A stretch of 34,185 nucleotides of DNA from Bacteroidota bacterium (GTDB lineage Bacteria > Bacteroidota > Bacteroidia > CAILMK01 > JACPUW01). The notes under the pieces are model-generated. The model did not search any database and was not told the DNA's origin. It was given only the letters and a program-made list of their open reading frames with translations. Where the stretch lies: the NCBI GenBank assembly GCA_020437725.1, contig JAGQWA010000003.1, positions 1 to 34,185 on the forward strand, given 5' to 3'. Positions 4,797-31,537 of the stretch are shown here, piece after piece. The translations under genes were made by a program, and so were the position numbers. How positions within the stretch are numbered: position 1 is the first letter of the stretch; each line of letters starts with the position of its first letter.

Positions 4797-5013
4797 CTAC
4801 TCTATTATCAATTTGGCAGTTTTTAATTCTGACTCAAAACTTGCAACCATCACATATTGACCTGCAGAAAGAGTTGAAACATCAATTTCGTTGTGGTAAG
4901 TTTCTAATACCATTTCGCCTTGAAGGTTGTAGATTTTAACACTCAAAATAGTTGAGTTAGCACTTACTATAACCTTATTTGACGCTGGGTTGGGATATAT
5001 TTTGAAGTTTCTA
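4797..5013 (-). other. T9SS type-A C-terminal sorting domain of the 2933-aa protein
   Basis: RNFKIYPNPASNKVIVSANSTILSVKIYNLQGEMVLE...LSAGQYVMVA...KLIIE. This is the canonical Por/T9SS CTD pattern (TIGR04183-like). Confidence 0.85.
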
Positions 5014-8000
5014 GTTTGGATTCGACTCCGCTCATCCACCGACAAGGTTGTTACTTGGCTGTATTCGAAATTACCATTGTAGTCTACTTGCTTTAGGCGA
5101 TAGTAAACAGTTGACTGACCACGGTCGACTGACGACAGACTTAAGTGGTCTGTGGACTGTGGACTATGGTCGATAAAATAATAACTGTTAACATCAGACG
5201 TTGTTCCAAAGCCTTCTACCCTTCCTATCTGCATCCAAGTTGTGCCATCAAAGCTTTTATCAATTTCGAAATGGCTGTTGTTGTACTCTTGGGCGGTTTG
5301 CCATTCAAGTTTTGCAGTTTGGCCTTCTTCAACCCAATAAGCATCAAAATTCACTAGTTCTACCGGCAATGGTGTGCCAGGGCCACCTACACCCAAATAA
5401 TAGAGATTGGTGCTAAAATCAATGGTTCGTGTTTGAAAATAAGGATCAGAACCAGTGGCTGCTGTGGTGTAAGGAGCCTGATTCCATGAAGATGAAACCC
5501 CATTTTCCCAATATCCAATTCCACTATTTGCTCTTGTTAAATTGCTTTCTTGTGCGGCGTCCCAGCCTATTTGCACCTGCACATTGTTAACCGCCGAACT
5601 CGATTGAATGGTCCATGTTTCGGTAACTACTTGGTTGGTTATTTCTGTAGTTGGAGCCGTAGGGTCTGTGTAAATTTTATCAGATACCCCAACTGAAAAC
5701 TCGGCATCGCCGCCATTAGAAATTACCACTGGCAAATAAGGATTTCGCCCAATTGGCAGAATTACCGGATCGCTTCCTATGGTGGCCTTTACTCTACCTG
5801 TTCCATTTATTTTAAGATACGAATTGGCATTTCCGTGGCTGGTTGTGCCAGTTAAGGATAAACTAAAATTGTTCAGCTCAATATCGCCTGTGTCAAGTGT
5901 AAGATTTCCGGTAATGGTTAAATCGCCTTCAAGGCTTACATCGTTACTATTTTTAATTCGCAATGCGCCCAGTGTGCCGCTGCCGCCTAATTTCTGTTTT
6001 GCCGTGCCCGACATAATGAGCACTCCGCTGCCTGATGCTGTTCCGTTTACAATTACTTCTTCAGTTACTGTTACGTTGGCATTGGTGGTTACGGTTTTAC
6101 CAGATACCACATGAAAACCCTTGTAAGTTCCAGCAATGGCAAGTGTTAAATCATGGAATACTGCAATTTTATCGGTTGAACTATTTGGTGCAGAACCATC
6201 TTTCCAAGTGGTGCCAATGTTGTTGTTACCGTCTCTTACGGTTTTAAATGGCTCTCGAGCATTTGCCAAAACCCAGCAGTTACTTAAATCCATATTGGTT
6301 AAAGTACCAGTATAACCATTGCCACTCTCGTCTGTTAATGATGTTCCTGAAGTAAAATCGAAGGTGTAGTATGCCAGCAAATCGTCTTCATCGCCATTTA
6401 ACGATGCGTACATATTGTCTTGAATTTCGGTTTGAGTTCTAGCATCGCCCCAAAAACGGAGTTCATCCAGAACGCCCGGATAAAAACCTGTTTGTTGACT
6501 TCCAATGCCGTTAATCTGGTTATTGAATGATGCTGACGCTATGGTTTCTGTTGCCACCAAAATTCCATCTACATATAATTTCCACTCATAATTTGAAGTT
6601 CCTGAAATTGATTTACAAGACCATGCCACGTGGTGCCAAGTATTTCTCTGAATAACGCCAGAATAAGTTTTGGTAATTGGGTTGAATCCATTGCCATAGC
6701 CAATTTCAATTCCAGTATCGTTATTAATAAAAATATTAGGTGGATGGCGATAACTCAACAAAGTTCCAGTTGCCTTTCCAAATAATGGCACCAATCCGCC
6801 ATTACTCGGATTATCATGTCTAAGCCAAGTTTCAATTGTAAACTCGGTACCCAACCGCAAGTTGCTTACGGCTACATAATCGTCGGAGCCGTCAAACTTT
6901 AGGGCATTTCCAGGCCCCATTAGCTGTTTTGCCAATTCTTTTGGAACAATTGGTGCAGTGCTTTTTACCCAATTTGATGTGGTATCAGTTAAACCAAAAT
7001 TAACCAGTTGACCTTTGTAAGAATTTGTAGAAACATCTGGCAAATAGGTTTCAGAAGTTTGGTCGAAACGATAGTAAGCCACCAAATTGAGTTCGTTTCC
7101 AACTAGCGATCTAAATCTGTTTTTGTTAAGGTCTTCTTCGGTTCTTAAGGCGTTCCAAATTCTCACTTCTTCGGCTTTTCCACTTAAAAACAGCGAACTG
7201 GCATTGTTTACCCATGTTCTGCCAATAGAAATAATATCGGTGCTCAAAAGAGAAAAATTGGTAAAACTTACATCAGCTTCTTTACGGCCGTCTATATACA
7301 CTTTGTAGCCAACGCCATCTTCAATAACCAAAGCGTAATGGTGCCAGTTATTATCAGTTACGGGTTTTGAATAGGCAGTTAAACCGGTGTAGGGATCATA
7401 AACACCTTCTCGGTTTACTACCCATTTATAGGTTGAACCTGTTGAGTTAATTGAAATTAAAGCACGACTATTGACTTTAGAAACGAACCAGCCTTCAAAA
7501 GTGGCATTGCTAGATGCTACTTGATTGGCTACGTTGCTAATGTCAACATAATCATTATTTCCATCAAAATAGAGCGTGTAACCTGCCGGTTCTTTTGACC
7601 GACCAATGGTATAATTATAACCTGAATGTAAATTGGAAATATTGATTAAAAACTGAATTTTATTACTGTCTATTAGATAGTTAATGTCGTTAATTGGTGT
7701 AAAATCGCCAGTATTGCCATCTCTTTCTAACAAATAATATGAAAAATCGGGAGAAGCCTGAGTCCCGAGAGCAAATGTTAGTTTAATGTTGCCGCCGTTG
7801 GTATCAACATCAAAAACATCGATTTGCCAATTGCGCTCATAGCGATGAGACACATTGCTGCTTGCCAAAATATTGTTGGTGGTTTCTACAAAATCGCCCT
7901 GCATTTTGCTCATTACTATTTTATCGCCTACATCTTGAATGCCTCCTCTTGGCATAAAAAAGCGGGTTAAAATGGCATCGAGCGTTAGCTCGTTGCGTGT

Positions 8001-11000
8001 TGAAGTAGAAATTACAGAACCAGCCCCACCGTTTTCAATTTTATAAATGAGCTCACCATAAGGTGAATCGTCAGAACCTACACCAAAATAGAACTTCTTG
8101 TTATTCATGGTAATACCAGATCTGGTTAGGTAATCTCTTCCATTTGCAGAGCTTGTTGGTGAAACACCATATTTATCCCAGAAGGTTTTTATTCGTCTTG
8201 CTGACATACTTGCCATCGATGCATAGTCAGAATCAAAGCCCGACAGTACATCGCTAGCATTCCATTCCACTTTTATTTCGGCACTTGGAATAGAATCATC
8301 GGTATCAATTACCCAGGTTTTAGAAATTCCATCTTTTGTTTGTGTCCCACTTCTAAACTTAGGGTCAGAATACAAGTTATTGTATAACCCTATTGAAACT
8401 GTATAATTTTGAGAATTACCAATGGTTAAAGGCGTATAGTTGGCATAACCTATGGGGAATGTTACTGAGTTGGTTGGCAGGGTTAGTCTAATGGTTGCCA
8501 AATCATATTTAAACTCAATATAACTGGTTGAATTTCCTACAATTGAGCCGCTAGTAAGCTCAATATCAGCATACAAATGAATTTTTCCGTTGGTAAGTTT
8601 TACTGAATCTTGAAACTGTCTATCGTTATACAAAATCACTTGTGCGCCGTTGTTTACTTCTAAGCCACAATGGCTGCCCGAACCAAAAATGTGCTGGGTA
8701 GAAGTTCCGTTCATAACCGTTTTACCTGTTCCCCTAATTTCTCCAAAGTCGAAAATGCTTTTAGCAACTTGATAGTTGGCATTCAATTCAAAATCTGCAT
8801 TATTATCTAAATAGAGAATGTTGGCGGCTTGGTCTAAATTGGCTATTACATAGCTGTTTATTACCACATTATGCAATGCCGATGTAGGATTTCGGCCATT
8901 GAGCCAAGTAAACTGCGAACCATAAGGGCCGGGGTTAACTGAAACATACGCTTGGCGTGCAAGGGGGCTAATCCAGCAAGAATTGGTATCGGCAAAATTT
9001 GTTAGTTCACCGTATGCACTTGGGTCTTTAATGTTTGGTAATGTGCTTGTGTATGATGCGTCAAAATCGAAATAATGTTTAAGCCCTGAACTAGAAGTCG
9101 CAACTGACTTGAACATGTTCTGTTGCAAGTCAGTTTGACTTCTGGCCGTGTTCCACAGCCTAAATTCATCCATATACCCGTTAAAACTTGAAGATGCTAC
9201 TTTGCCAATTGCCTTTAACCCGTAATCGTAATTTACACCTGTTTGCGTGCTAGTATGCACCAAAACGCCATCTACATATAGTTTCCACTCAGCATTTCCG
9301 CTGGTTTCTTGGCAGGTCCAAGCAATATGCTGCCAGGTGCCCGGGGTTAGTACATTAGAGATGGTTTCTGACAATTGTTCTGTGCCGTTTCCATACTCTA
9401 GTCTAATTGAATTTTGCCCAATTACATATATAGAAGGTGGAATTCTTTTAGGATAAAAAGTATAGTCTCCAGAATTTCCACCAATTACACCATATTTTGA
9501 GCTTGAAGTTGTGTTTTGGGCGTTAATCCACCCTTCTATGGTAAAGGTTTTACCCAACTGCGGATTGTTGCGAAGTGGAACATATTCATTAGTTGAAAAA
9601 CTCAATGCTTTTCCAACGCCTTTTAATAGGAGTTTATCACTATTTCCACCCAGTGGAGCGGTAGATTTTAGCCAATTAGAATTTACACCTGTATAGGCAA
9701 AATTGTAAAGCTTTCCTTGATGACCATAACCCGAAGCATCTGGTAAGTATTGCTCTTCATTTTGGTCGAACTTGTAATAGGCGCAAAGTCTTTCATTGCC
9801 TTCAAAATGCAGGTTCATGCTATCGGCAATGTGCGGCGCTTCGCGTTCTCTGCTCCAAAATTTAACCTCATCAAGCTTACCGTTAAATGCCAACCCGCCT
9901 CTTAAGCCTCCGCCTAGTCGCACTTTGCTAGAAAGTGTCCAAAGTTGGTCATTTACACCATTCGTTTTGGTTGATTCGAGTACCCCATTAATGAACATTT
10001 TAGAATACATATTCCGGTAATTTTTGGTAATGCATACATGTGTCCATTGGTTATTAGCAACGGAACTTTGGCTTTGAAGAGTTACTATATTATTTCCATA
10101 TAAAAACCTAATTTTTCCGTAAAAGAGCAAAACTGAATAGCCATGATTGTTGCCACCATCGCCATCAATAATCATAGCCTGTGTATTGTTTTGATTGGTT
10201 TTAATCCAAAACTCTATAGAAACATCATGGGTGGTGAATTGATTATATGTTTTATAGGGTTGAATAATGTCCACATAATCATCCTGTCCGTCAAAAGCCA
10301 GAGAATAGCCAGGGCCGTTATCAGATATTCCTACGGTAATTTCAGTGTTATTGGTTAGTGCAGTTCCATCAAGAAAAAATACAACGCTATCATTATAAAG
10401 ACCGTAGTCTAGGTTATTTATAATCTCAAAATCAGTTTGTTGAGCTGTTTTTTGAAGTAAATAGTATGAAGCATCATTATTGAAATTGCTTCCAAGAGCG
10501 AATGATAGGCCAACGGTTCCACTATTATTTAAAATGTCTTTTATTTCTAATTGCCAGGTTCTATTTAGCCTGTTTACTACATTGGTTGAAGCGGGAATAT
10601 TATTAGTGGTTTGAGTAAGTGACTGCCCATTGCTTAAAAAATGAATGCCATACCCATTTCTTATGCCATTGGTTTTGTACTTGGTAACGGTTAAACCATG
10701 GTGAGAGCTGGTATGAATAAGCTCGTATGCCAAGTAGCCACTTAATAAATCAGTATTAAGAGCATCAACCGGAGCTGCAGAACCACTACTATAGTTTGAA
10801 TTACCAAGTACGCCAGAAACGTTACTACCAAAGCAATAAACTTGTCCGGTTACTGTGCAGCCCAGCGAACTAAAATAGCCAGCTTTAACCCATATTACCG
10901 AGCCTTGTTTTTTATCGCCAAAATAGTAGCTCGAATTGCTTTTGCCTTTTATAACCGCTCGTGGCGTTTTGGCGTAAGTTGTTGATGAACTGCTGCCTAA

Positions 11001-13598
11001 ACCTAGCTGGTCGTAATTATTTCGTCCCCATGTAAAAACATGACCAGCATCTACCCTGGCAATAGTGTGATACATGCCACAATCAATTGATAGAACTTGA
11101 TTGCCAGAACCGTCGCCGAAGTAGGTAGTGCCATTATAATCGCCTTTTAAAACACTAACCGGCTCATTTGAAGTAGTTACACTGCCATTTCCTAATTGAC
11201 CATAAGCACAATTTCCGAACGAATAAACCTGACCGTTACTCGCCAAAATGCATGTAAAATCATATCCTGCTGATACTTGTAAAACTTCTAATGACCTATC
11301 ATCTCCAAAGTAAAATTGGCCAGAATATGAGCCTTTGAGCACTCTTACAGGTGTTCTTTGATTTGAATAATTGCCATTACCCAACTGGCCTTTGTAATTG
11401 TTACCAAAGGAATAAACAGTGCCTTTTGCAGAAACGGCCAAACTATGAGAACCACCAGCAGTAATATGCACAATAGGATCGTTTATGTCATCTCCTAAAT
11501 ATTGTGTTCCTTTATACGCGCCTTTGTGCACTCTAATTGGTGTATTTCTATAATTGGTAGTGTTGTCGCCCAATTGCCCATCACCGTTTAAACCGAAACT
11601 ATAAACTTGGCCATTTGCAGTAAGCACAATTGAATGATAATCACCTGCATCAATGGCCACAATTGGGTTTGCTGAATTATCTCCTAAATAAGTGGTTCCA
11701 TCATAATCGCCCATTTTTACTCGTACAGGTTCATATTCACTGGTGTTGTTTCCAATACCTAATTGGCCATAACCGTTACCGCCAAAAGCATACAACTTGC
11801 CGCTTTTTGTTAAAACCATAGAGTGGTTAGAACCTGCGGCCACTTGCACTACAGGATCGTTGGCGTCATCGCCTAAATAGGCAGTACCAGCATACTCACC
11901 CTTATTAACTTTTTGTATAGCTGTTTGATTGGTTGTATTGCCAATACCTAACTGGCCGGCGTTGTTTGCACCCATTCCTAAAGCAACACCAAACTCTGAA
12001 ATGCCAATAAAATGGCGGTTTACATCAACTTTTTTGGTGTTACGAGCCATAAAATAACTGCGTGCAGAAAAGGTGGTGCCTTTGCTATTGGTTGCTTTTA
12101 ATCGCACATAATACACTCTACCTGCAAGCAAATTGGTTAACTGAGCCGATTCAAATTTGGGCGTATAGCCGCTTACAGAATTTAGGGTTATTGATTCTCC
12201 GTAATTTGTGGTTAGGCCATACTCCAAAACAATACTGGTGAGCAAGCCATTGGGTTGAACCCAACAATTAATTTGAAGGCTGGTATCAGTGCAGGCCGAA
12301 ACCGGTGGAAAACGCAAATCGGGCACCGAAACATCATAACAACCCATGCTTGGATAGCCATACCTTGTAAGACCTTTTATATCTGGGTTGCCTTTATAGG
12401 TTATATCTCCTCTTGAAATAATGCCAAAAATTCTAGGATTAAGTCCGTCATCAGCAGTCATCAAAACACCATCATTGCCAATAAAATTAGACCCGCTGGT
12501 AAATGCCGAACTTATGCTGGTGTTAGAGAGATTTAAAACCACGGTTGAATTTGTAAGCACATTGCCTGAATTTCCATCGCTACTGGCGTTGTAATCTGTG
12601 CCTGATGACACAATTCCTGAACTAACGTCGGTGCCGGCATTGCTCATAAAAATGCAGCTGTTAATCATGCATTCTGCCTTGTTTCCACTCATTGAAATGG
12701 TGTAATCAGCACTTGCGCCTGTATTTTTTACCACCGAGACATTAATTACTTGCATGGTGGTTGAAACTGGACTAGAAGAATAATTGCTCTCATAAAAGAT
12801 AGCAGAACCTTTAATCTGTGCATGGTTTAGAAGCAATAAGCTATTAAGCAAAGTGGGCGCACCCCAATAGGTATAAATTGCGCCGCCATTTGCCTGCGCC
12901 TTATTATTAGTGAATACTGATTTAGAAACAGTTACCGAAGAATAAGACAGGTATAAACCGCCACCATTGTTTTTGTAGATTGAATGAGTGGCAGAACTGG
13001 TGGTTATGGCAATTGAACCCGTGTCGCTGGCATTTCCATCTTGAATAACTAAGTTTTCAAACTTGGTATCGGCGGTTAAATCAATACCAATAAATACATG
13101 GTAGCAGTTGTCGTTTTCAGAAGCTACGTTTCCAATATTTCCACTTAAAATGGTGTTGGCACCGGTTTGCTCGCCAGTAATTGAATTATAGCCGCCTTTA
13201 AGTTCAACATCGTGCCCAAATAAATAGAAGGCTTTATTTTGATTGTTGCTCGATGAATTGGGTGAGGCTGTTGGGTAATACGTTCCTTCGGCTATTCTAA
13301 TTTCATCAACATTGCTGCTCATATGCGCATTTAATGCCGATTGTAAACTAGTGTAAGCATTGCTCCATGAAGAGCCATTGTTGGTGCCTGTTGCTGTATT
13401 ATCTACATACAATATGCTTTGCGCAAATGTGAAAGAGCTCAAAAAAGCCAAAATCAAAATAGCCAAGGCTTTTTTAGATGCGGCTATTTTTTCGCCTATT
13501 TTCTTCAAGGCTTGCGATTGCAGTGATAATTTCTCTGAAAGCTCCAGACTTTTTTCTTCTTGCCCCAGTTCTTTGCTATTTGTTTTAACCTTAGCCAT
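4797..13598 (-). CDS. giant (2933 aa) T9SS-secreted multidomain surface protein: beta-helix, Fn3-like, RCC1 propeller, 2 x (sandwich + 2 LamG + beta-helix-like + sandwich), T9SS CTD
   Basis: Uninterrupted 8.8-kb ORF with ATG at 13598 and hydrophobic signal core ALAILILAFLSSFTFAQS. Domain motifs are listed in the sub-features below. All plus-strand ORFs in the track inside it are antisense artefacts. Confidence 0.9.
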   Translation of the reverse strand: MAKVKTNSKELGQEEKSLELSEKLSLQSQALKKIGEKIAASKKALAILILAFLSSFTFAQSILYVDNTATGTNNGSSWSNAYTSLQSALNAHMSSNVDEIRIAEGTYYPTASPNSSSNNQNKAFYLFGHDVELKGGYNSITGEQTGANTILSGNIGNVASENDNCYHVFIGIDLTADTKFENLVIQDGNASDTGSIAITTSSATHSIYKNNGGGLYLSYSSVTVSKSVFTNNKAQANGGAIYTYWGAPTLLNSLLLLNHAQIKGSAIFYESNYSSSPVSTTMQVINVSVVKNTGASADYTISMSGNKAECMINSCIFMSNAGTDVSSGIVSSGTDYNASSDGNSGNVLTNSTVVLNLSNTSISSAFTSGSNFIGNDGVLMTADDGLNPRIFGIISRGDITYKGNPDIKGLTRYGYPSMGCYDVSVPDLRFPPVSACTDTSLQINCWVQPNGLLTSIVLEYGLTTNYGESITLNSVSGYTPKFESAQLTNLLAGRVYYVRLKATNSKGTTFSARSYFMARNTKKVDVNRHFIGISEFGVALGMGANNAGQLGIGNTTNQTAIQKVNKGEYAGTAYLGDDANDPVVQVAAGSNHSMVLTKSGKLYAFGGNGYGQLGIGNNTSEYEPVRVKMGDYDGTTYLGDNSANPIVAIDAGDYHSIVLTANGQVYSFGLNGDGQLGDNTTNYRNTPIRVHKGAYKGTQYLGDDINDPIVHITAGGSHSLAVSAKGTVYSFGNNYKGQLGNGNYSNQRTPVRVLKGSYSGQFYFGDDRSLEVLQVSAGYDFTCILASNGQVYSFGNCAYGQLGNGSVTTSNEPVSVLKGDYNGTTYFGDGSGNQVLSIDCGMYHTIARVDAGHVFTWGRNNYDQLGLGSSSSTTYAKTPRAVIKGKSNSSYYFGDKKQGSVIWVKAGYFSSLGCTVTGQVYCFGSNVSGVLGNSNYSSGSAAPVDALNTDLLSGYLAYELIHTSSHHGLTVTKYKTNGIRNGYGIHFLSNGQSLTQTTNNIPASTNVVNRLNRTWQLEIKDILNNSGTVGLSFALGSNFNNDASYYLLQKTAQQTDFEIINNLDYGLYNDSVVFFLDGTALTNNTEITVGISDNGPGYSLAFDGQDDYVDIIQPYKTYNQFTTHDVSIEFWIKTNQNNTQAMIIDGDGGNNHGYSVLLFYGKIRFLYGNNIVTLQSQSSVANNQWTHVCITKNYRNMYSKMFINGVLESTKTNGVNDQLWTLSSKVRLGGGLRGGLAFNGKLDEVKFWSREREAPHIADSMNLHFEGNERLCAYYKFDQNEEQYLPDASGYGHQGKLYNFAYTGVNSNWLKSTAPLGGNSDKLLLKGVGKALSFSTNEYVPLRNNPQLGKTFTIEGWINAQNTTSSSKYGVIGGNSGDYTFYPKRIPPSIYVIGQNSIRLEYGNGTEQLSETISNVLTPGTWQHIAWTCQETSGNAEWKLYVDGVLVHTSTQTGVNYDYGLKAIGKVASSSFNGYMDEFRLWNTARSQTDLQQNMFKSVATSSSGLKHYFDFDASYTSTLPNIKDPSAYGELTNFADTNSCWISPLARQAYVSVNPGPYGSQFTWLNGRNPTSALHNVVINSYVIANLDQAANILYLDNNADFELNANYQVAKSIFDFGEIRGTGKTVMNGTSTQHIFGSGSHCGLEVNNGAQVILYNDRQFQDSVKLTNGKIHLYADIELTSGSIVGNSTSYIEFKYDLATIRLTLPTNSVTFPIGYANYTPLTIGNSQNYTVSIGLYNNLYSDPKFRSGTQTKDGISKTWVIDTDDSIPSAEIKVEWNASDVLSGFDSDYASMASMSARRIKTFWDKYGVSPTSSANGRDYLTRSGITMNNKKFYFGVGSDDSPYGELIYKIENGGAGSVISTSTRNELTLDAILTRFFMPRGGIQDVGDKIVMSKMQGDFVETTNNILASSNVSHRYERNWQIDVFDVDTNGGNIKLTFALGTQASPDFSYYLLERDGNTGDFTPINDINYLIDSNKIQFLINISNLHSGYNYTIGRSKEPAGYTLYFDGNNDYVDISNVANQVASSNATFEGWFVSKVNSRALISINSTGSTYKWVVNREGVYDPYTGLTAYSKPVTDNNWHHYALVIEDGVGYKVYIDGRKEADVSFTNFSLLSTDIISIGRTWVNNASSLFLSGKAEEVRIWNALRTEEDLNKNRFRSLVGNELNLVAYYRFDQTSETYLPDVSTNSYKGQLVNFGLTDTTSNWVKSTAPIVPKELAKQLMGPGNALKFDGSDDYVAVSNLRLGTEFTIETWLRHDNPSNGGLVPLFGKATGTLLSYRHPPNIFINNDTGIEIGYGNGFNPITKTYSGVIQRNTWHHVAWSCKSISGTSNYEWKLYVDGILVATETIASASFNNQINGIGSQQTGFYPGVLDELRFWGDARTQTEIQDNMYASLNGDEDDLLAYYTFDFTSGTSLTDESGNGYTGTLTNMDLSNCWVLANAREPFKTVRDGNNNIGTTWKDGSAPNSSTDKIAVFHDLTLAIAGTYKGFHVVSGKTVTTNANVTVTEEVIVNGTASGSGVLIMSGTAKQKLGGSGTLGALRIKNSNDVSLEGDLTITGNLTLDTGDIELNNFSLSLTGTTSHGNANSYLKINGTGRVKATIGSDPVILPIGRNPYLPVVISNGGDAEFSVGVSDKIYTDPTAPTTEITNQVVTETWTIQSSSAVNNVQVQIGWDAAQESNLTRANSGIGYWENGVSSSWNQAPYTTAATGSDPYFQTRTIDFSTNLYYLGVGGPGTPLPVELVNFDAYWVEEGQTAKLEWQTAQEYNNSHFEIDKSFDGTTWMQIGRVEGFGTTSDVNSYYFIDHSPQSTDHLSLSSVDRGQSTVYYRLKQVDYNGNFEYSQVTTLSVDERSRIQTRNFKIYPNPASNKVIVSANSTILSVKIYNLQGEMVLETYHNEIDVSTLSAGQYVMVASFESELKTAKLIIE
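5117..5172. repeat. 56-nt palindromic element translated in frame (copy in the 2933-aa gene)
   Basis: GACCACGGTCGACTGACGACAGACTTAAGTGGTCTGTGGACTGTGGACTATGGTCG. 48/56 identical to 14366-14421. Contains inverted repeat GACCAC/GTGGTC. Encodes ...SPQSTDHLSLSSVDRGQS... just before the conserved YYRLKQ motif. Confidence 0.65.
6410..7590 (-). other. LamG / concanavalin-A-like lectin domain pair (copies 3 and 4); boundaries approximate
   Basis: Starts GYTLYFDGNNDYVDIS and GNALKFDGSDDYVAVS. Ends AEEVRIWNALRTEEDLNKN and LDELRFWGDARTQTEIQDNM. The pattern (FDG.DDYV ... W ... [LM]DE.R.W...R) is typical of Laminin_G_3-type domains. Confidence 0.7.
9115..10315 (-). other. LamG / concanavalin-A-like lectin domain pair (copies 1 and 2); boundaries approximate
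   Basis: Starts GYSLAFDGQDDYVDI and GKALSFSTNEYVPL. Ends LDEVKFWSREREAP and MDEFRLWNTARSQTDLQQNM. Confidence 0.7.
10765..12010 (-). other. RCC1-like beta-propeller repeats (about 7 blades); boundaries approximate
   Basis: Repeating unit of about 55-60 aa: G.LY.FG.N..GQLG.GN......P..V, then YLGDD...P(I/V)V.(I/V).AG..HS..L. Examples are GKLYAFGGNGYGQLGIGNNTSEYEPVRV and GQVYSFGLNGDGQLGDNTTNYRNTPIRV. Confidence 0.8.
12040..12310 (-). other. Fn3-like beta-sandwich segment; boundaries approximate
   Basis: ...LQINCWVQPNGLLTSIVLEYGLTTNYGESITL...AQLTNLLAGRVYYVRLKATNSKGTTFS.... The YGxT...Y and L.PGT.YY.R..A.N..G pattern is typical of Fn3-like modules in Bacteroidota surface proteins. Confidence 0.5.
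12450..13420 (-). other. N-terminal right-handed beta-helix-like region (pectin-lyase fold / polymorphic-membrane-protein-like repeats); boundaries approximate
   Basis: ILYVDNTATGTNNGSSWSNAYTSLQSAL..., then NGGGLYLSYSSVTVSKSVFTNNKAQANGGAIY. These are GG[AG][IL]-type beta-helix repeat signatures. Confidence 0.55.
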
Positions 13599-13758
13599 AC
13601 ATCACCCCTATTTAATGCAAGTGCAATTACCAGCCATTAACTCTTTGGCTGGCAAATTCTAGGCTTGAGAAAACCTTAAAAAAACAAAAAATGACCTTAA
13701 GAAAAGCTTAATTTAGAAACTAATGTGTTGGAATTCAATAACTAAACTTATAACGAGC

Positions 13759-13892
13759 CTAGTTTCTTGTCTAAAAGGTGACAATTGGAAAATTCAAAAT
13801 TGAAAGTTCAAAATAGATTCAATTGCAATGATCTTGTTTGGTGTTTTGCCTAAAGTCTTTTGAAGTCTAAGGATCAAAGTCTCATTCGTGGG
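13759..13892. repeat. intergenic repeat block, member of the dispersed family
   Basis: CTAGTTTCTTGTCT (13759-13772) is identical to 32673-32686. AAAATTCAAAATT (13789-13801) is identical to 32541-32553 and 32622-32634, and to the reverse complement of 2368-2380. Followed by three AAGTCT words (13851-13890). Lies about 160-300 nt upstream of the giant gene. Confidence 0.65.
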
Positions 13893-13960
13893 TTAACTCG
13901 AACAGAGCGATAAATCTGTGGATTTGATTCTATTAGCTCATTTTGAATTTAAGCCGATTA

Positions 13961-14000
13961 CAATAAAACAGCCCTTTCCTACTGCTAGTGAAAAGGGCTG
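13961..14000 (-). terminator. intrinsic terminator downstream of the 966-aa cargo gene
   Basis: Perfect 9-bp stem CAGCCCTTT (13969-13977) / AAAGGGCTG (13992-14000). On the minus strand it is followed by TTTTATTG. It lies 55 nt past the stop at 14055. Confidence 0.75.
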
Positions 14001-14054
14001 TGCATACAGACAAACTCCCCATCTACAAGGAGATAGAAAATAAAGCAGGCAACT

Positions 14055-16955
14055 TTATTCTATTACTACTTTTTCAAATTGGAATTCTCCGTTTGAAACC
14101 ACTTTCAAAACGTAATTGCCAGCAGGTAAATGATCGAGACTTATTTGGTTAACTCCTTTTTCATTTAAAACCAATTGTCCATTTTGGTTGTACAGTGCAA
14201 CTGTTGCATTAGTAGAATTGGTGTTGAAATAAAGCACATTGGCTGTTGGGTTTGGATAAACAGTAAAGTTTCTAGTTTCGGGTTTAAAGTTTAGAGTTCT
14301 AACTTCCGAGTACTCAAAGTCGCCATTGTAGTCTATTTGTTTAAGGCGATAGTAGATGGTCGACGGACCACGGTCGGCGGACGACAGACTACCGTGGTCT
14401 GTGGACCGTGGACTGTGGTCGGTAAAATCATAACTGTGAACTAAATCACTTGTTCCATTGCCATCTACCCTTCCAATAGTTTCCCATATCAAATCTGCTC
14501 CAGATGTTGCCGATGCACGGTGGCTGAGCGAAGTCGAAGCCATTTCTATCTCAAAATGACTATTGTTCAACTCCATTGAAGTCTTCCATTTTAATTGCAC
14601 GGCCTTTTGCGCTTTATTTGCATGGTGACTGAGCGAAGCCGAAGTCACCCATTCAGCGGTAAAATCAATCAATTCAACAGGTAATGGAGAACCAGCGCTT
14701 CCCACGCCAAACCAAAGGTCGTAGGTTGGGTTAAAGTAGGCGGTTTTTGTAATAGTGTATGGATCGTTTCCGGTGGCTGCAGTTGGTGCACCAATATACC
14801 ATTGACCAATGCCTTGATACCAATGAGACAAACTAGCATTTGCTCTATTAAACCCAGCTAATTCTTCGCTTTCGGGCCATTGAACAGTAACTTGAACATC
14901 GCTAGCCACATTCAGTGGGTTTATGTACCAGGTTTTATTAACTGCATTGGCATTTAAGGCGCCAGTTTCATTTTCAGGATTTGTATAGGCACCATTTATT
15001 ATTCCAATTTCATATTCTCTATTGTCAAAATTTCCGATAGCGGGTATGTAAAGTTGCACAGGCAAGTATGGGTTATAACCTATGGGAAAAAAGCGCGTAT
15101 CGCCTCTTGTATGTGTGGCATGCAACCTTCCATTGCCATCTACCCTAATATATGAATTGCTGCTTCCGCCTGCAAATGTTGTTGCATTGCCAGCATGCAA
15201 ATTATAAGCACCAAGAACTACGTGGCCATTAGTTAAGGTAAGTTGGCCATTAACAGTTAAATCTCCACCAAGTTCTAAATTGTAATCATTGTCTATAACC
15301 ATATTTTGAACTTGTATAGCTGCCGTAGTTCTAACCACGGCCTGAGAGTTAGCTATCTTTAAAGTGCCAAAACCGGCAAATTGAACCACTCCTTCTATGT
15401 CTCCTCTAATTTCAAGAGTTATGCCATTGCTAATTGAAATTTCTGGATTGTTGTTCAAGATTAAACTCTTACAAGTAAGGTTGGCTGATATTGTAATGTT
15501 GCCATCTATTTGAGCCACTCTATTATTGTTGGGTTGGCCATTACCCCAAGCATTTCCGTTCCAAATAGTGGTGTCTATTTGTGCGGCTGGTGCAGCTTGC
15601 TTAGTAAAAACGTGTAGGTGGTGATTAACCCAAATATTTTGAGCATCGTTACCCGAAGATGCAATTACATCATTTCCGTTATAATACAAAAAAGATCCAA
15701 ATTTTAAACGGTAGTTGCTTTGTCTGGGTGGAAAGAAATTGCCTTGGTAATCCCATGTTTGAGTATTGGCATTCTTTACAAAATGGAATACGGTACCAGT
15801 GTAATTATTAGCATTGTTTATTGAAGTATCATATCCGGGTGCAGCAATTAATATGGTATCGTTGGCAATGGCCACTCCATAACTAAAATATTGAGAAGAA
15901 CTGCGATTTACTGGCGCTACTAACTTTTGAGTAATGCTCCATAAACCATTGCTTTTCTCAGCTATATATGCGGCACCTGCTCCTGCCAAGTAGTTGTTGC
16001 CGTTTTCGTCTAGCCCATCGTTTGTTGATGAAATGAGCATTGTATTATTACTAATTTCAATTTTTTCGCCAAAGTAATTACTGTCAAAATCGTTGTTAGA
16101 TTTAAGAATTTGTGTGTTTGTAAATACCAAATTTCCTGTTCCATTTCTACTTATTTCGTAAATGAGAATTCGCCCGCCGCGCCGGCTATTGTTTGCAACC
16201 CTGTTGTTTCCATATTCTCCAAGAATAAGCTGGCCGTCGTAAAACTGAATATTATTAAATAATACATCTTGATAACTAACCACATTGCTTGTTTCATAAA
16301 TAGTAGTTTCATATCCCCAATTATTATTTCCACCATTATTTCTATAATAAATATGAACGGCTAACCTTTGGTCAATAAGGTTTCCATTTTCATAGTAGGC
16401 GGCATCTCCTTCAGTTATTGCTAAAAAACTATCGCTAATGGCTACATCAGAGCCAAAAAAACCTTCTTCAATTCTGTTTATAGGTGCTGTGAGCTTTTTA
16501 ATAAAACCCCAATTATCGTTTCCACCGGTATTTTTTTGAAATATGTAAGCCGCACCCGAATGATATAACGAATCATTGCCACTGCCATTAAAATTTGCCC
16601 AATAGGTGCCCACAACCAAATAATCACCATGCATTGCCACGGCTTCACCAAACCACAAATTGGTTCCTTCTGTTGCCCTATCTGGCGCTACTAGCTTTTT
16701 AATTTGGGTATAGGTGTCATTAATCTTTTTGTATATATAAACCGCACCGCTTGAGTTAATGTCGTTTTGGTTGTTCTGATCATAATCTTGTCTTATAGCG
16801 TTGGCAATAAAATAATCTCCATGAAATTCTCCTTGCAAACCAAATAGATCTGATGAATTACATTCTTGCGGATAAAATGTGTGCGAATGAGTAAATACTT
16901 GAGCTTTAATTCCAAGAGTTGAACCGATTAAAATGAAGAGTAAAAAGTGCTTCAT
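14055..16955 (-). CDS. T9SS-secreted surface protein (966 aa): FG-GAP-like propeller N-terminal half, beta-helix/sandwich stalk, T9SS CTD
   Basis: The track ORF starts at TTG 16982. ATG at 16955 gives the signal peptide MKHFLLFILIGSTLGIKAQ. Repeated FG..VA(I/M)..D.L(V/I)(V/I)G...GAAYIF.K units resemble FG-GAP repeats. The C-terminal ~500 aa is paralogous to the tail of the 2933-aa protein. CTD (14055-14279): RNFTVYPNPTANVLYFNTNS...LPAGNYVLKVV...KVVIE. Confidence 0.85.
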   Translation of the reverse strand: MKHFLLFILIGSTLGIKAQVFTHSHTFYPQECNSSDLFGLQGEFHGDYFIANAIRQDYDQNNQNDINSSGAVYIYKKINDTYTQIKKLVAPDRATEGTNLWFGEAVAMHGDYLVVGTYWANFNGSGNDSLYHSGAAYIFQKNTGGNDNWGFIKKLTAPINRIEEGFFGSDVAISDSFLAITEGDAAYYENGNLIDQRLAVHIYYRNNGGNNNWGYETTIYETSNVVSYQDVLFNNIQFYDGQLILGEYGNNRVANNSRRGGRILIYEISRNGTGNLVFTNTQILKSNNDFDSNYFGEKIEISNNTMLISSTNDGLDENGNNYLAGAGAAYIAEKSNGLWSITQKLVAPVNRSSSQYFSYGVAIANDTILIAAPGYDTSINNANNYTGTVFHFVKNANTQTWDYQGNFFPPRQSNYRLKFGSFLYYNGNDVIASSGNDAQNIWVNHHLHVFTKQAAPAAQIDTTIWNGNAWGNGQPNNNRVAQIDGNITISANLTCKSLILNNNPEISISNGITLEIRGDIEGVVQFAGFGTLKIANSQAVVRTTAAIQVQNMVIDNDYNLELGGDLTVNGQLTLTNGHVVLGAYNLHAGNATTFAGGSSNSYIRVDGNGRLHATHTRGDTRFFPIGYNPYLPVQLYIPAIGNFDNREYEIGIINGAYTNPENETGALNANAVNKTWYINPLNVASDVQVTVQWPESEELAGFNRANASLSHWYQGIGQWYIGAPTAATGNDPYTITKTAYFNPTYDLWFGVGSAGSPLPVELIDFTAEWVTSASLSHHANKAQKAVQLKWKTSMELNNSHFEIEMASTSLSHRASATSGADLIWETIGRVDGNGTSDLVHSYDFTDHSPRSTDHGSLSSADRGPSTIYYRLKQIDYNGDFEYSEVRTLNFKPETRNFTVYPNPTANVLYFNTNSTNATVALYNQNGQLVLNEKGVNQISLDHLPAGNYVLKVVSNGEFQFEKVVIE
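14366..14421. repeat. 56-nt palindromic element translated in frame (copy in the 966-aa gene)
   Basis: GACCACGGTCGGCGGACGACAGACTACCGTGGTCTGTGGACCGTGGACTGTGGTCG. Perfect 9-bp inverted repeat GACCACGGT (14366-14374) / ACCGTGGTC (14391-14399), plus nested GTGGAC repeats. Encodes ...SPRSTDHGSLSSADRGPS.... Confidence 0.65.
14515..14543. repeat. short hairpin element inserted in frame (copy 1)
   Basis: GCACGGTGGCTGAGCGAAGTCGAAGCCAT, with stem TGGCT/AGCCA and a 12-nt loop. Translated on the minus strand as MASTSLSHRA. This peptide is absent at the equivalent position of the 2933-aa paralogue (HFEIDKSFDGTTW versus HFEIEMASTSLSHRASATSGADLIW). Confidence 0.65.
14620..14649. repeat. short hairpin element inserted in frame (copy 2)
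   Basis: GCATGGTGACTGAGCGAAGCCGAAGTCACC, with perfect 7-bp stem GGTGACT/AGTCACC and a 12-nt loop. Translated as VTSASLSHHA. Absent from the paralogue (AYWVEEGQTAKLEW versus AEWVTSASLSHHANKAQKAVQLKW). Confidence 0.65.
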
Positions 16956-16979
16956 AACGAATAAATTTTTATGACAGCA

Positions 16980-16987
16980 CAAACGTA
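16980..16987 (-). promoter_or_regulatory. candidate Bacteroidota -7 promoter box
   Basis: The minus strand reads TACGTTTG, matching the TAnnTTTG -7 consensus of Bacteroidota sigma-A promoters, about 25 nt upstream of ATG 16955. No convincing -33 TTG partner was seen. Confidence 0.3.
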
Positions 16988-17042
16988 TTTTTAGGCCTTT
17001 GGCTATGCTATTTTACAGGGTTAGCATGGCGTGAACTAAGGG

Positions 17043-17062
17043 GGTAAACAAATGGTAAACAA
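17043..17062 (-). promoter_or_regulatory. GTTTACC direct-repeat motif, site 1 (candidate operator)
   Basis: The minus strand reads TTGTTTACCATTTGTTTACC: two TTTACC words spaced 11 nt apart, about 90-105 nt upstream of the 966-aa cargo gene. Confidence 0.4.
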
Positions 17063-17090
17063 CAATTTACCACAACATACCAACATAAGA

Positions 17091-17112
17091 AAAGCCCCAG
17101 GAACGGGGCTTT
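17091..17112 (-). terminator. candidate intrinsic terminator after the histidine kinase gene
   Basis: Perfect 8-bp stem AAAGCCCC/GGGGCTTT with a 6-nt loop. On the minus strand the stem ends in TTT followed by TCTTATG, about 200 nt past the kinase stop. The U-tract is only moderate. Confidence 0.45.
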
Positions 17113-17291
17113 CTGAACAGGTTTTTCAATAAGAAAAAACGAACCCATTTTATGCATTAAAAAGCTGCGGGTATTCTAACACATAATCTGGGTTCTTAAA
17201 TAATGATGCTATCTAAACCCAAGCATGAAACAAAGGTGTTTCTATCGAGTATACTGTGAAAGAATTACGGGTAAACAGCAAGTAAGCAATA

Positions 17292-17310
17292 GGTTAAACA
17301 AAGGGTAAAC
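17292..17310 (-). promoter_or_regulatory. GTTTACC direct-repeat motif, site 3
   Basis: The minus strand reads GTTTACCCTTTGTTTAACC, starting 2 nt after the kinase stop codon (TAG at 17315-17313). A further half-site TGTTTACCC lies at 17269-17277. Confidence 0.4.
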
Positions 17311-17312
17311 GA

Positions 17313-19583
17313 CTAACCTTTTAGCTGTTCTAATGGCAATACCAAAGTAAATGTGGTTTGGCCAGGTTTGCTTTCTGCTTTTAAGGTTCCGTGGTGTTCT
17401 TTAACAATTTCTAGGCTAATAGATAATCCAAGCCCTGTACCCTTGCCAATTTCTTTAGTTGTAAAGAATGGGTCAAAGATTTTAGACATGGTGCCTTGTT
17501 CTATTCCAACGCCACTATCAGTTATTGAGAGTTTTATTTCGTTATCTAACTGCTCAGTTTTAATAACAATATTTCCTGTTTGTTCAATGGCCTGTACTGC
17601 GTTGCTAAGCAAATTCATTAGCACTTGATCAAGCTTTTCTCTGTAGCCTTCAATTATAGCGTTATCGGCAAAATCTTTCACAATTGAAATTCGGTCTTTG
17701 TAACTGCTGTGAAGCAACAACAAGCAGTTGTCTATGCTGGTATGCAAGTCAACCTTGCTAAGATTGCCTTTATCTGTTCTGGCATAAATTCTTAGTCCGC
17801 GCACTATTTCGGCTGTTCTATTGGCGCCTTTTGTGATACTATTGGTAATAAGATCTATTTCTTTAATAATCTCTTCAATCGAAGCATTTTTAGATACTTG
17901 CTCAGAATGCTTGTCTTTATTTAACAAGCTTTTTATATCGTTCAATTCCAGTTTTAAAGAGTCAATTCCGGCTTTTACGTAATTTATTGGGTTATTTATT
18001 TCATGTGCAATACCGGCAGTAAGTTGGCCTATGCTTGCCAATTTTTCGTTTTGTATAAGCTGTGCTTGTGTCTCCTTTAGCGTTTTATTAGCGGCATCTA
18101 ACTGACTAGTGCGTTGTTGCAAATTCTCTTTTTCGTTTATTAAGTTTTTATTGGTTTGTTTGAGTTTATTTCTGGTTGAAAACAAGATAAATAGAATGGC
18201 TATTAGTGCTCCCAATATGAGTAGCACTAGCATTGAAAAAAGAATAAGATTACGGTTTTGATGCTCTTTAATATTAAGCTTTTCAGTTGTTATACGACTT
18301 TTTTCTTCTGCCCTTTTAAGTTTAGCCTTTTGAAGTTTTTTCTCATTAAAGCTTTCTATAAAATTTAGCCTTTGTATAGTTTCTAAAGACACCAACGAAT
18401 CTTTTAACGCCATGTGTTTTGATAAGTGGAAGTAAGCAGAATCAGTATTTCCTTTTCGCTCATATACAAGTGAAAGCAGTTTATATGCGTTCTTTTTATG
18501 GGTAAAAAAATGGTTGCTATTGGCTAAGTAAAAACCTAACTGAGTATAATGCAAAGCGCTGTCTAGATTGTTGTTATTTATATAAGCTTCGCCCATACCT
18601 ATTAAAATAATGCACTTATTGGCGGGGGTTTTAAGCTTATAGCTTAGTTTTAATGCTTGTTTGTAGTATGCAAAAGCACTATCTAAAATGAGCTGATTGG
18701 CAAAATTCTGAGCCTTGTTGGTTAACAACTGCATTTCATGATAAGGGCTTGGTGCTCGTTTTAAATCTGTTGTGGCTTTATTATAGAAATGCAGTGCAGA
18801 ATCGTACTTCTCGGTGAAATTGTAAATAATGCCAATAAGCATGTTACTTCCAAAAATGCCTTTGAAATAGGTTGAGCTATCAGCGTAGAATTTGCCTATT
18901 TTGGCATATTTCATGGCGCGTTTATAGTCTTTTAGCTCAACGAAGCTAGAACCAATGTTTATAGCTATGTCGGCCATTTTTTGAGCCTTTTCAGTGGTGT
19001 AATTGCGGTTATACCAGCTTAGAATTTCTAAATAATTTGGAATGGCTTTGTCATGAAATCCTTGATTAAAGTCTTCTACCGCAATATTGGTAATGCACGA
19101 AATCACGTTGGTAGAATCATTTCTGGCAAGCGCCGCTTCTTTGGCCTCCATAAAAGTAAATCTGGCCGAATCGTTATACCCCAGGCGAGATTGAGCGGCC
19201 CCAATACGCATCATTAACGAGAAATACTGTTCTGTAAATGAGATAGAATGTGCTAATTTTTTAGCTTTTTGCCACTCTACAATAGCACGCTGAAACAAGC
19301 CTTGATAGAAATAGGTAAGCCCTATTGCGTTTAATGACGTTACTTGAGAGTTCGGTCTTTCTAGCGCTATAGCCAGTTGCAAGGCCTTTTGGGCAAAAAT
19401 TCTAGCACTGTCTAAATCGGTATCTAGATAGGCAAAGCTTAACCTTTGGTAGGTTTTGCAGTCGTTGCTGTCGTTTTTCTCTGTTAGGGCTTGCTTTAGG
19501 CTGTCAATTGTTACCTGTTGTGCGTTCACCATTACGGTGCCATAGCAAAAACAGAAACAAAGTATAACCCTTAAATTTTTCAC
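17313..19583 (-). CDS. sensor histidine kinase with extracytoplasmic TPR domain
   Basis: 756 aa. GTG start at 19583 gives signal-like MKNLRVILCFCFCYGTVMVNAQ. Multiple TPR-like repeats. TM helix LILFSMLVLLILGALIAILFILF, then a coiled coil. H-box LTAGIAHEINNPINY, N-box LLSNAVQAI, G1 DSGVGI, G2 GTGLGLS. Confidence 0.9.
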   Translation of the reverse strand: MKNLRVILCFCFCYGTVMVNAQQVTIDSLKQALTEKNDSNDCKTYQRLSFAYLDTDLDSARIFAQKALQLAIALERPNSQVTSLNAIGLTYFYQGLFQRAIVEWQKAKKLAHSISFTEQYFSLMMRIGAAQSRLGYNDSARFTFMEAKEAALARNDSTNVISCITNIAVEDFNQGFHDKAIPNYLEILSWYNRNYTTEKAQKMADIAINIGSSFVELKDYKRAMKYAKIGKFYADSSTYFKGIFGSNMLIGIIYNFTEKYDSALHFYNKATTDLKRAPSPYHEMQLLTNKAQNFANQLILDSAFAYYKQALKLSYKLKTPANKCIILIGMGEAYINNNNLDSALHYTQLGFYLANSNHFFTHKKNAYKLLSLVYERKGNTDSAYFHLSKHMALKDSLVSLETIQRLNFIESFNEKKLQKAKLKRAEEKSRITTEKLNIKEHQNRNLILFSMLVLLILGALIAILFILFSTRNKLKQTNKNLINEKENLQQRTSQLDAANKTLKETQAQLIQNEKLASIGQLTAGIAHEINNPINYVKAGIDSLKLELNDIKSLLNKDKHSEQVSKNASIEEIIKEIDLITNSITKGANRTAEIVRGLRIYARTDKGNLSKVDLHTSIDNCLLLLHSSYKDRISIVKDFADNAIIEGYREKLDQVLMNLLSNAVQAIEQTGNIVIKTEQLDNEIKLSITDSGVGIEQGTMSKIFDPFFTTKEIGKGTGLGLSISLEIVKEHHGTLKAESKPGQTTFTLVLPLEQLKG

Positions 19584-19627
19584 AATTCAAAAGTACAAGA
19601 GCACAATTCTCCTGCTGGCAAACAAGG

Positions 19628-19646
19628 GGTTACAAATGGTAAACAA
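19628..19646 (-). promoter_or_regulatory. GTTTACC direct-repeat motif, site 2
   Basis: The minus strand reads TTGTTTACCATTTGTAACC, starting 2 nt after the response-regulator stop (TAG at 19651-19649) and about 45 nt upstream of the kinase GTG start. Confidence 0.4.
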
Positions 19647-19648
19647 GG

Positions 19649-20686: not shown

Positions 20687-20746
20687 CAACCCCAAATTGC
20701 TGTTTGCGAATATGTGTAATTCTTGGTTTTCAAAAATTCGAAACAA

Positions 20747-31367: not shown

Positions 31368-31537
31368 AAGACCAATAAGTTTGAGCCAAATGTAGCTAAT
31401 TTTAAAGTTGACCTTGGTTACTTTTAGTTCATCAATTTCACCAGAAAATGAGAAATGATTAAATGCTTTCAAGCGACTTATATAAAGCTACTCAAAGTCG
31501 GCAGACAACCATTGCAGCACCGCAAAGTCTTACTGCG

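Follow-up and report, generated by a model that had tools for sequence, protein, structure and literature searches.

It is known that new protein loops can arise when palindromic repeats colonise genes in frame; the Rickettsia palindromic elements (RPEs) and some of the repetitive extragenic palindromic (REP) elements are examples. RPEs were reportedly described by Ogata et al. in 2000 (Science) as lying in frame in protein-coding genes and being tolerated at the protein surface, and in cyanobacteria Elhai et al. are said to have described in 2008 a set of small dispersed repeats (SDRs) that are mobile, 21-27 nt long and nest in one another. RPEs are mentioned, and intragenic REPs catalogued, in PMC3733652, and the REP and REPIN elements are GTAG- or CGTC-tagged palindromes mobilised by RAYT (REP-associated tyrosine) transposases (PMC3733652, PMC3116915). 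A passage of PMC4390886 has SDR5 inserting between bases 3 and 4 of HIP1, and in a passage of PMC5861425 SDRs are given as reported from Nostocaceae only. MITEs (miniature inverted-repeat transposable elements), for example Correia/NEMIS, ERIC and Nezha, are reviewed in PMC10969869. Here we discuss two copies of a small hairpin that lie in the gene for a 966-aa secreted protein on a 34,185-nt stretch of a Bacteroidota genome (contig JAGQWA010000003.1), the whole of which we call the window. The hairpin is probably a very small non-autonomous dispersed repeat that has inserted in frame in loops of this protein.

The 966-aa protein is a type A cargo of the type IX secretion system (T9SS), with a C-terminal sorting domain (CTD; TIGR04183/PF18962) at residues 899-965 that scores 45.4 bits against a cut-off of 23. 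The two hairpin copies, TGCACGGTGGCTGAGCGAAGTCGAAGCCA at 14514-14542 (copy 1) and TGCATGGTGACTGAGCGAAGCCGAAGTCA at 14619-14647 (copy 2), were found by sequence reading and with a repeat finder. They share 86% identity, their starts are 105 nt apart, and both have the pattern TGCAYGGTGR-CTGAGCGAAGYCGAAG-YCA. The 16-mer CTGAGCGAAGYCGAAG, which we refer to as the core, is present twice in the window with 0.01 occurrences expected, and none of 100 dinucleotide shuffles reached two. There are four differences between the copies, and they include a paired change in the stem, GGCT/AGCC as against GACT/AGTC. The stem of copy 1 has 5 bp plus two G.T pairs on the + strand and that of copy 2 has 7 bp, in each case with a loop of 12 nt, and no T run is present 3' of copy 1 or copy 2. 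The canonical orientation of both is on the + strand, antisense to the 966-aa gene, and both are in the same frame of the minus-strand open reading frame (ORF) at 14055-16955, in which copy 1 encodes MASTSLSHRA and copy 2 VTSASLSHHA. The first-pass annotation of this DNA, made from sequence alone, had described two elements of about 29 nt, 105 nt apart, each a stem-loop with a 12-nt loop, with paired differences between them and both read in one frame as (A/T)S(T/A)SLSH(R/H)A, and all of this is borne out.

That the two copies are insertions is clear from relatives that have neither of them. In BLASTP comparison with the 2933-aa paralogue encoded by the adjoining gene, gaps of 10 and 12 aa fall exactly at the peptides of copy 2 and copy 1 respectively, as had been claimed from the absence of the peptides in that protein. 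The same two gaps are found with the nearest orthologue (P0002, from a Bacteroidia metagenome-assembled genome or MAG; 48% identity, 98% coverage). In the syntenic locus of P0002, L121 (L numbers being our handles for loci), the order is a 934-aa gene and then a 2011-aa cargo gene, and upstream are the same two-component genes. Four-way alignments of protein and of DNA place the segments in the 966-aa gene only, with the paralogue and both L121 genes missing them, and 17 further homologues in an alignment of the domain family also have neither segment, so that the alignment of orthologues put forward as a check in the first-pass annotation does give empty sites.

In the DNA alignment the relatives have a clean gap of 30 nt at copy 2 (sense strand TGACTTCGGCTTCGCTCAGTCACCATGCAA), the copy closer to the N-terminus, with no repeated flank to suggest a target-site duplication at this exact insertion. 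The loop with copy 1 is 36 nt (12 aa) longer than in the relatives, and 29-30 nt of this is the element. Both copies are thus insertions specific to this lineage, one of 30 nt and the other of about 30-36 nt, and bring their own stem with them. Similarity between the two sites stops at the edges of the element, with 29 nt shared. Segmental duplication of the 105-nt interval was considered as a source of the second copy and is ruled out, as only the 29-nt elements are alike.

Both copies are in the domain that precedes the CTD. The AlphaFold2 model of this 133-aa domain, for which the input was a 20-sequence alignment of the pre-CTD domain, is a beta-sandwich with a mean predicted local distance difference test score (pLDDT) of 79.8 and a predicted template modelling score of 0.74. 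The insertions are at model residues 18-31 and 53-72, with mean pLDDT of 57 and 56 and with 90-97 for the neighbouring strands; the copy 2 loop (pLDDT about 57) is between the first two strands, and the copy 1 loop has a pLDDT of about 56. In the model, then, both insertions occupy low-confidence loops between strands of the sandwich, which is what the modelling proposed in the first-pass annotation was to look for. A Foldseek search of the PDB gave only weak matches to Ig-like sandwiches, all with E of 0.006 or above, and no firm fold assignment.

The two elements are members of a large family of dispersed repeats with many copies, most of them intergenic, in several phyla. The 16-mer scan covered one genome per species, and the scans that define the family required the core exactly. 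The 16-mer was found at no fewer than 120 loci (at least 120), and so was the 24-nt pattern GGTGN-core-NCA derived from the window copies, for which the chance expectation is by our own calculation essentially zero; the motif is thus abundant elsewhere, as the first-pass annotation would have it. The 24-nt matches listed are mostly from Flavobacteriales, Bacteroidales, Cytophagales and Chitinophagales, with several from cyanobacteria and some from a few other phyla, and for some assemblies several contigs were matched. Here and below, counts of family copies are among the matches listed. The unit has a 5-7-bp stem, variable in sequence yet complementary, that closes a conserved loop (NNNNN-CTGAGCGAAGYCGAAG-N'N'N'N'N'), and the consensus can be given as (CC)GGTGN-core-N'CA(CC), with a length of 24-30 nt. 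The flanks of the 16-mer are far from random, with GTCATC-core-GAT, GCCTGCC-core-GG, GTCACC-core-GG and GGTGG-core-CCACC all recurrent.

The stems covary across the family. In the 24-nt set the free N..N' positions form a pair in 127 of 138 copies (GC 68, AT 26, CG 18, TA 8 and GT 7). In the 16-mer set the -1/+1 and -2/+2 flanks are Watson-Crick pairs in 91% and 81% of copies, as against 52% and 34% when shuffled. The stem covariation score of the family is 0.413, a value that none of 500 shuffles reached, against 0.146 +/- 0.014 in shuffles and 0.07-0.18 for slid partners. The compensatory difference in the window is thus one case of a family-wide rule, and the suggestion in the first-pass annotation of selection on, or an origin from, a structured nucleic acid is supported. 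At the two free stem positions of the 16-mer set there are 18 G.T and 5 A.C pairs, and this modest excess suggests that the CTGAGCG strand is the folding strand, which in the 966-aa gene is antisense to the mRNA. A strand bias based on G.T pairs in the 24-mer set was dropped, as that pattern fixes the left arm as G, and the 16-mer set was used. No association was seen between the Y base of the loop and the stem variant among the matches listed.

The count of intergenic against intragenic copies that had been put forward as a check was made on the family elsewhere, and shows it to be mostly intergenic: 12 of 116 copies are in ORFs of at least 300 aa, as compared with 58% of random positions in the same loci. 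The in-gene copies with named products are included in Table 1. Only one of the six frames of the core has a stop codon, and the in-gene copies elsewhere are read in three frames (TSxSLSH, VxERSRSH and WLSEVEA) and are in both orientations, from which it follows that the peptide is not the conserved feature.

Among the matches listed the copies cluster, and tandem and partial duplications are common; right-half tandem duplications (CGAAGYCGAAG-stem) are seen at L130, L148, L207 and L125. Three clean cases of nesting were found in three phyla, one in a Patescibacteria MAG, one in a Nostoc and one in a Saprospiraceae MAG, and all fit a split at CTGAGCGA^AGYCGAAG that puts a 24-nt unit exactly midway in the outer loop, flush and without duplication. 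Nesting goes up to three deep at L195 (the Saprospiraceae MAG), L035 and L092, with each inner copy in the middle of the loop around it. Several copies form the apex of terminator-like hairpins in which the outer stem is unrelated host sequence. A near-threshold match to the Flavo-1 RNA (RF01705; 39.3 bits with a gathering score of 42) at L233 1853-1951 has a 22-26-nt family copy in place of the apical loop of the Flavo-1 hairpin. Flavo-1 was considered as the element's own family and is ruled out, the L233 match being a host hairpin that carries the element in its loop.

Some genomes have a longer form, AAGTGAGCAC-GGTGA-core-TCAC, which occurs as inverted pairs, and the TGCAYGG extension of the window copies resembles this form. 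At L205 1560-1960, L207 5820-6160 and L232 1300-1700 a longer repeat unit of about 50 nt (...TAGACTTAAAGTGAGCAC-GGTGA-core-TCAC) has the element as its tip, and these units form inverted pairs 160-230 nt apart in a REPIN-like arrangement. The TGCAYGG extension is present 5' in copies 1 and 2 and is outside the family consensus, and that they share it suggests that both came from one local source, or that one came from the other. A scan of metagenomes with a 28-nt pattern that includes GCAYGG gave 4 unrelated loci, in which the GCAC is part of a host terminator stem. In 2.9 million viral contigs (IMG/VR) the 24-nt pattern was in 4 stretches only (L312-L315); it is rare but present there, and with so few stretches phages are not an obvious main vehicle.

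The window has 3 copies in total, one of them degenerate and missed in the first-pass annotation. This third copy, GGTGGATGAGCGGAGTCGAATCCA, is in the 2933-aa paralogue, in sense orientation and thus opposite to copies 1 and 2 relative to the gene, and is read VDERSRIQ. Its place is the linker that joins the sandwich domain to the CTD, and there the paralogue has 4 aa more. The first and last bases of its core have changed jointly, from C..G to A..T, so that the closing pair is kept.

Table 1. Location of the hairpin copies, genes and other repeats in the window, and of in-frame copies at other loci
Feature	Location	Strand	Remarks
Hairpin copy 1	14514..14542	+	TGCACGGTGG-CTGAGCGAAGTCGAAG-CCA; 0 mismatches to the 24-nt family pattern
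Hairpin copy 2	14619..14648	+	(T)TGCATGGTGA-CTGAGCGAAGCCGAAG-TCA; matches the 24-nt family pattern
Third, degenerate copy	5017..5040	-	GGTGG-ATGAGCGGAGTCGAAT-CCA; 3 mismatches; 0 expected in shuffles
Host gene, 966-aa protein with FG-GAP repeats and T9SS C-terminal sorting domain	14055..16955	-	ORF intact through all insertions
Pre-CTD beta-sandwich domain (LPVEL...YYRLKQxDxxG...YS)	14301..14699	-	Carries all three insertions of the 966-aa gene; family alignment, AlphaFold2 model
Adjoining paralogous cargo gene, 2933 aa (RCC1, Laminin_G_3, T9SS CTD)	4797..13598	-	Supplies the empty sites for copies 1 and 2
Heptamer hairpin, second family	14358..14423		Inverted pair of GTGGWCT-type repeats; read DHSPRSTDHGSLSSADRGPST
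Heptamer hairpin in 2933-aa paralogue, equivalent loop	5110..5174		Read DHSPQSTDHLSLSSVDRGQST
In-frame copies	L125, L129		HsdR, type I restriction R subunits
In-frame copy	L153		Methylase-HemD fusion
In-frame copy	L218		C39-ABC exporter
In-frame copy	L238		GT2 glycosyltransferase
In-frame copy	L228		Mevalonate-diphosphate decarboxylase
In-frame copy	L194		Ketoacyl synthase (KAS)
In-frame copy	L115		1148-aa Thalassobellus ORF, no Pfam match

With regard to mechanism, we suggest that a trans-acting enzyme may copy the element, recognising the folded single strand and the conserved loop. Only copies with an intact stem would then propagate, and this would give rise to the compensatory changes. 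Insertion would be precise and without target duplication, and would favour exposed single-stranded tips, such as the middle of the loop in other copies, the top of terminator-like hairpins and the apical loop of Flavo-1. In coding DNA selection would retain only those insertions that are a multiple of 3, have no stop codon and lie in loops able to tolerate them, and the peptide would be a passenger and not the selected feature. The claim of the first-pass annotation that a palindromic element has colonised coding DNA and is tolerated in loops of the pre-CTD domain is supported by the empty sites and by the modelled loops. The broader proposal is more doubtful, although possible: that the CTGAGCGAAGYCGAAG-loop hairpin may be an ultra-small mobile element so far undescribed, 24-30 nt long and found across phyla, that inserts precisely and without target duplication into single-stranded hairpin tips, the centre of its own loop among them, is moved by a widely distributed loop-reading enzyme, and incidentally adds segments of 8-12 residues to the loops of proteins encoded by many genes of Bacteroidota and cyanobacteria.

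Several points weigh against an inserted mobile repeat. No mobilising factor was identified, in an analysis in which no search was aimed at transposase-like ORFs, and the case for mobility is drawn from comparison between species and between paralogues, no filled and empty site having been seen within a species. There is no intergenic copy within the 34 kb of the window. The wide conservation of the 16-nt loop could reflect a cellular function of the intergenic copies. RNA folding of the single hairpins is weak (z = -0.25/0.02 for copy 1 and -1.8/-2.0 for copy 2), and as these hairpins are thermodynamically unremarkable alone, the case for structural constraint comes from the family and not from copies 1 and 2. 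Finally the reconstructed empty sites have no significant hairpin (z = +0.9 and +0.05, no better than shuffles), so that a hairpin-tip target is not an obvious explanation for the two coding insertions; the same absence indicates that the stem travels with the element.

The best surviving alternative is that the hairpins are functional structured elements, on RNA or DNA, rather than selfish passengers; they might act as an internal attenuator or terminator, give rise to an antisense RNA, bind a protein, or be a site of RNase processing or of stabilisation. We think this unlikely. Orthologue, paralogue and 17 homologues have neither copy 1 nor copy 2, and the 966-aa gene thus works without them, and although the stems covary strongly across the family, the folding of the two copies is weak. 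Many intergenic copies do sit on top of terminator-like hairpins with flanking runs of A and T, but there is no T run after either copy in the 966-aa gene. That G.T pairs outnumber A.C pairs is a hint that the fold belongs to one strand, but the favoured strand is antisense to the mRNA in this gene, and in-gene copies elsewhere are in both orientations and in unrelated genes. The compensatory change to the closing pair of the decayed third copy also fits with function, whereas Rfam has no relevant match in the region of the window concerned.

It is also possible, but in our judgement quite improbable, that there is no dedicated mobility, and that local replication or repair (template switching, hairpin slippage or short-patch gene conversion) made copy 2 as a local duplicate of copy 1. 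The extension common to copies 1 and 2 would fit this, as would the presence of all three copies of the window in the C-terminal parts of two adjoining paralogues, and the partial tandem duplications and close clustering that are common in the family. However the two sites have only 29 nt in common, with flanks that are unlike, and nesting is precise at one position. Further, a 16-nt core that is identical but for Y (the scans requiring an exact core) is dispersed over many contigs and phyla, and for this reason local slippage cannot explain the family.

The Bacteroidota O-glycosylation motif is D-(S/T)-(A/I/L/M/T/V). We consider it very improbable that the inserted peptides, (A/T)S(T/A)SLSH(R/H)A, are themselves the selected feature, for example as a Ser/Thr-rich surface loop for modification or binding, with the palindrome a by-product of the codons, for although both copies encode similar Ser/Thr-rich peptides in the same frame in surface loops of a secreted protein and the TSxSLSH frame recurs in L125, L153 and L140, about 90% of the copies are outside long ORFs, the differences between copies keep base pairing and not amino acids, the O-glycosylation motif is absent from both peptides, and selection on the peptide is further disfavoured by other genes that read the same DNA in other frames (VAERSRSH or WLSEVEA, and DERSRI in the paralogue).

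The window also has a GC-rich repeat of a second, unrelated family, the heptamer hairpin of Table 1, which was missed in the first-pass annotation and is translated in the third loop of the pre-CTD domain in both paralogues; in the 966-aa gene this loop is about 12 aa above the family norm. The hairpin at 14358-14423 has a folding z of -5.8 on the + strand and -2.9 on the mRNA strand. The heptamer motif was found at 68 loci elsewhere, mainly in Cytophagales and Chitinophagales, among them numerous Chryseosolibacter histidini contigs as well as Algoriphagus and Flavisolibacter, and some of the loci are in long ORFs. It is in frame in long ORFs at L256 (3101-5806), L244, L296 and L300, and in L256 it is read SPQSTDH near the C-terminus of a 902-aa ORF which, from sequence alone, we take to be MutS.

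As for neighbouring genes, a GldM-family T9SS component is encoded in the window (the coordinates listed with this context are 29721-31472, 17313-20746 and 2429-4696). The cargo genes have a tetratricopeptide repeat (TPR) histidine kinase with a response regulator upstream of them and, downstream, a TPR-LuxR regulator, and the arrangement of kinase and regulator is kept in the related locus L121. The T9SS CTD, the GldM component and a nearest relative that is a Bacteroidia MAG mark the host as a member of Bacteroidota. In L121 the C-terminal domains of the two adjoining cargo genes (12056-12805 and 18282-19031) are about 90% identical, while the same region of the two paralogues in the window is only about 46-52% identical; the high identity within L121 points to gene conversion, or else to recent duplication, in the related MAG. 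Upstream of the 966-aa gene there is a weak Rfam match to Phe_leader at 17085-17158 on the minus strand (25 bits with a gathering score of 55, E = 0.47), which is most likely due to chance.

The window extends in-frame insertion of palindromes to secreted proteins of Bacteroidota and to a much smaller unit. Clean empty sites exist, which shows that the element carries its own stem, and the compensatory changes are therefore informative about its propagation. The traits of the family that stand out are the 16-nt loop conserved across phyla, the precise nesting at the loop centre and the insertion into the tips of other hairpins. In the literature searched no paper had the 14-nt core, and matches to 10 nt were to primers. 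The family is thus not found described by sequence in the searchable literature, with the insertion of palindromes in frame itself known from other repeat families, and it may therefore point to an unrecognised mobilising activity. For annotation of genomes the consequence is that the element yields spurious "hypothetical proteins" and unexpected indels in alignments.

It remains to compare the family with known systems. Rfam gave no relevant match in the window, and the Flavo-1 covariance model gave no match at E of 1 or below in the region 13500-17500. Flavo-1 (RF01705) resembles our family in being a structured element of Bacteroidota, of which one copy overlaps the L233 match, but the element at L233 is an insertion in the apical loop and outside the Flavo-1 model. 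The STRR (short tandemly repeated repetitive) heptamers of cyanobacteria are tandem 7-nt units dispersed through the genome. The heptamer repeat at 14358-14423 is like them in having tandem 7-nt units and in being dispersed, but has the sequence GTGGWCT, is an inverted pair that forms a hairpin, is mainly from Cytophagales and Chitinophagales, and is translated in the window.

MITEs, like our family, are small non-autonomous repeats in or near genes, but they are typically from 50 bp (at least) up to several hundred bp and have terminal inverted repeats and target-site duplications. The term "MITE-like" used in the first-pass annotation cannot be sustained, as the element lacks both terminal inverted repeats and a target-site duplication and is only 24-30 nt long. 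The SDRs resemble the element in size, in nesting and in precise insertion at a defined short site. They are reported only from Nostocaceae and our family is mainly from Bacteroidota, and both the likeness and the separation are by description and not by sequence. The Nostoc loci L032 and L092 carry a CTTGTA-core-TA form of the element, and for these too the likeness to SDRs is by description only.

The REPs are also imperfect palindromes, of 20-40 nt, that are multi-copy, mainly extragenic and often in inverted pairs or clusters, that are sometimes intragenic and translated, and that have stems that tolerate G.T. Our element is likewise an imperfect palindrome of 24-30 nt with a stem-loop and is predominantly extragenic. 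However in our family it is the loop that is conserved and the stem that varies, and the same core is present across phyla, while REPs are usually specific to a species or genus. The GTAG/CGTC tag of REPs is neither in the window copies nor in the family consensus, and some sub-families have GTCA upstream. The description "REP-like" from the first-pass annotation holds by analogy only.

The RPEs are like our family in being dispersed palindromic repeats that lie in frame in genes, with the added peptide a passenger. They differ in being of about 100-150 bp (30-50 aa), confined to Rickettsia and unrelated in sequence, whereas the units discussed here are of 24-30 nt (8-10 aa) and are found in Bacteroidota, to which the host of the window belongs, in cyanobacteria and in other phyla.

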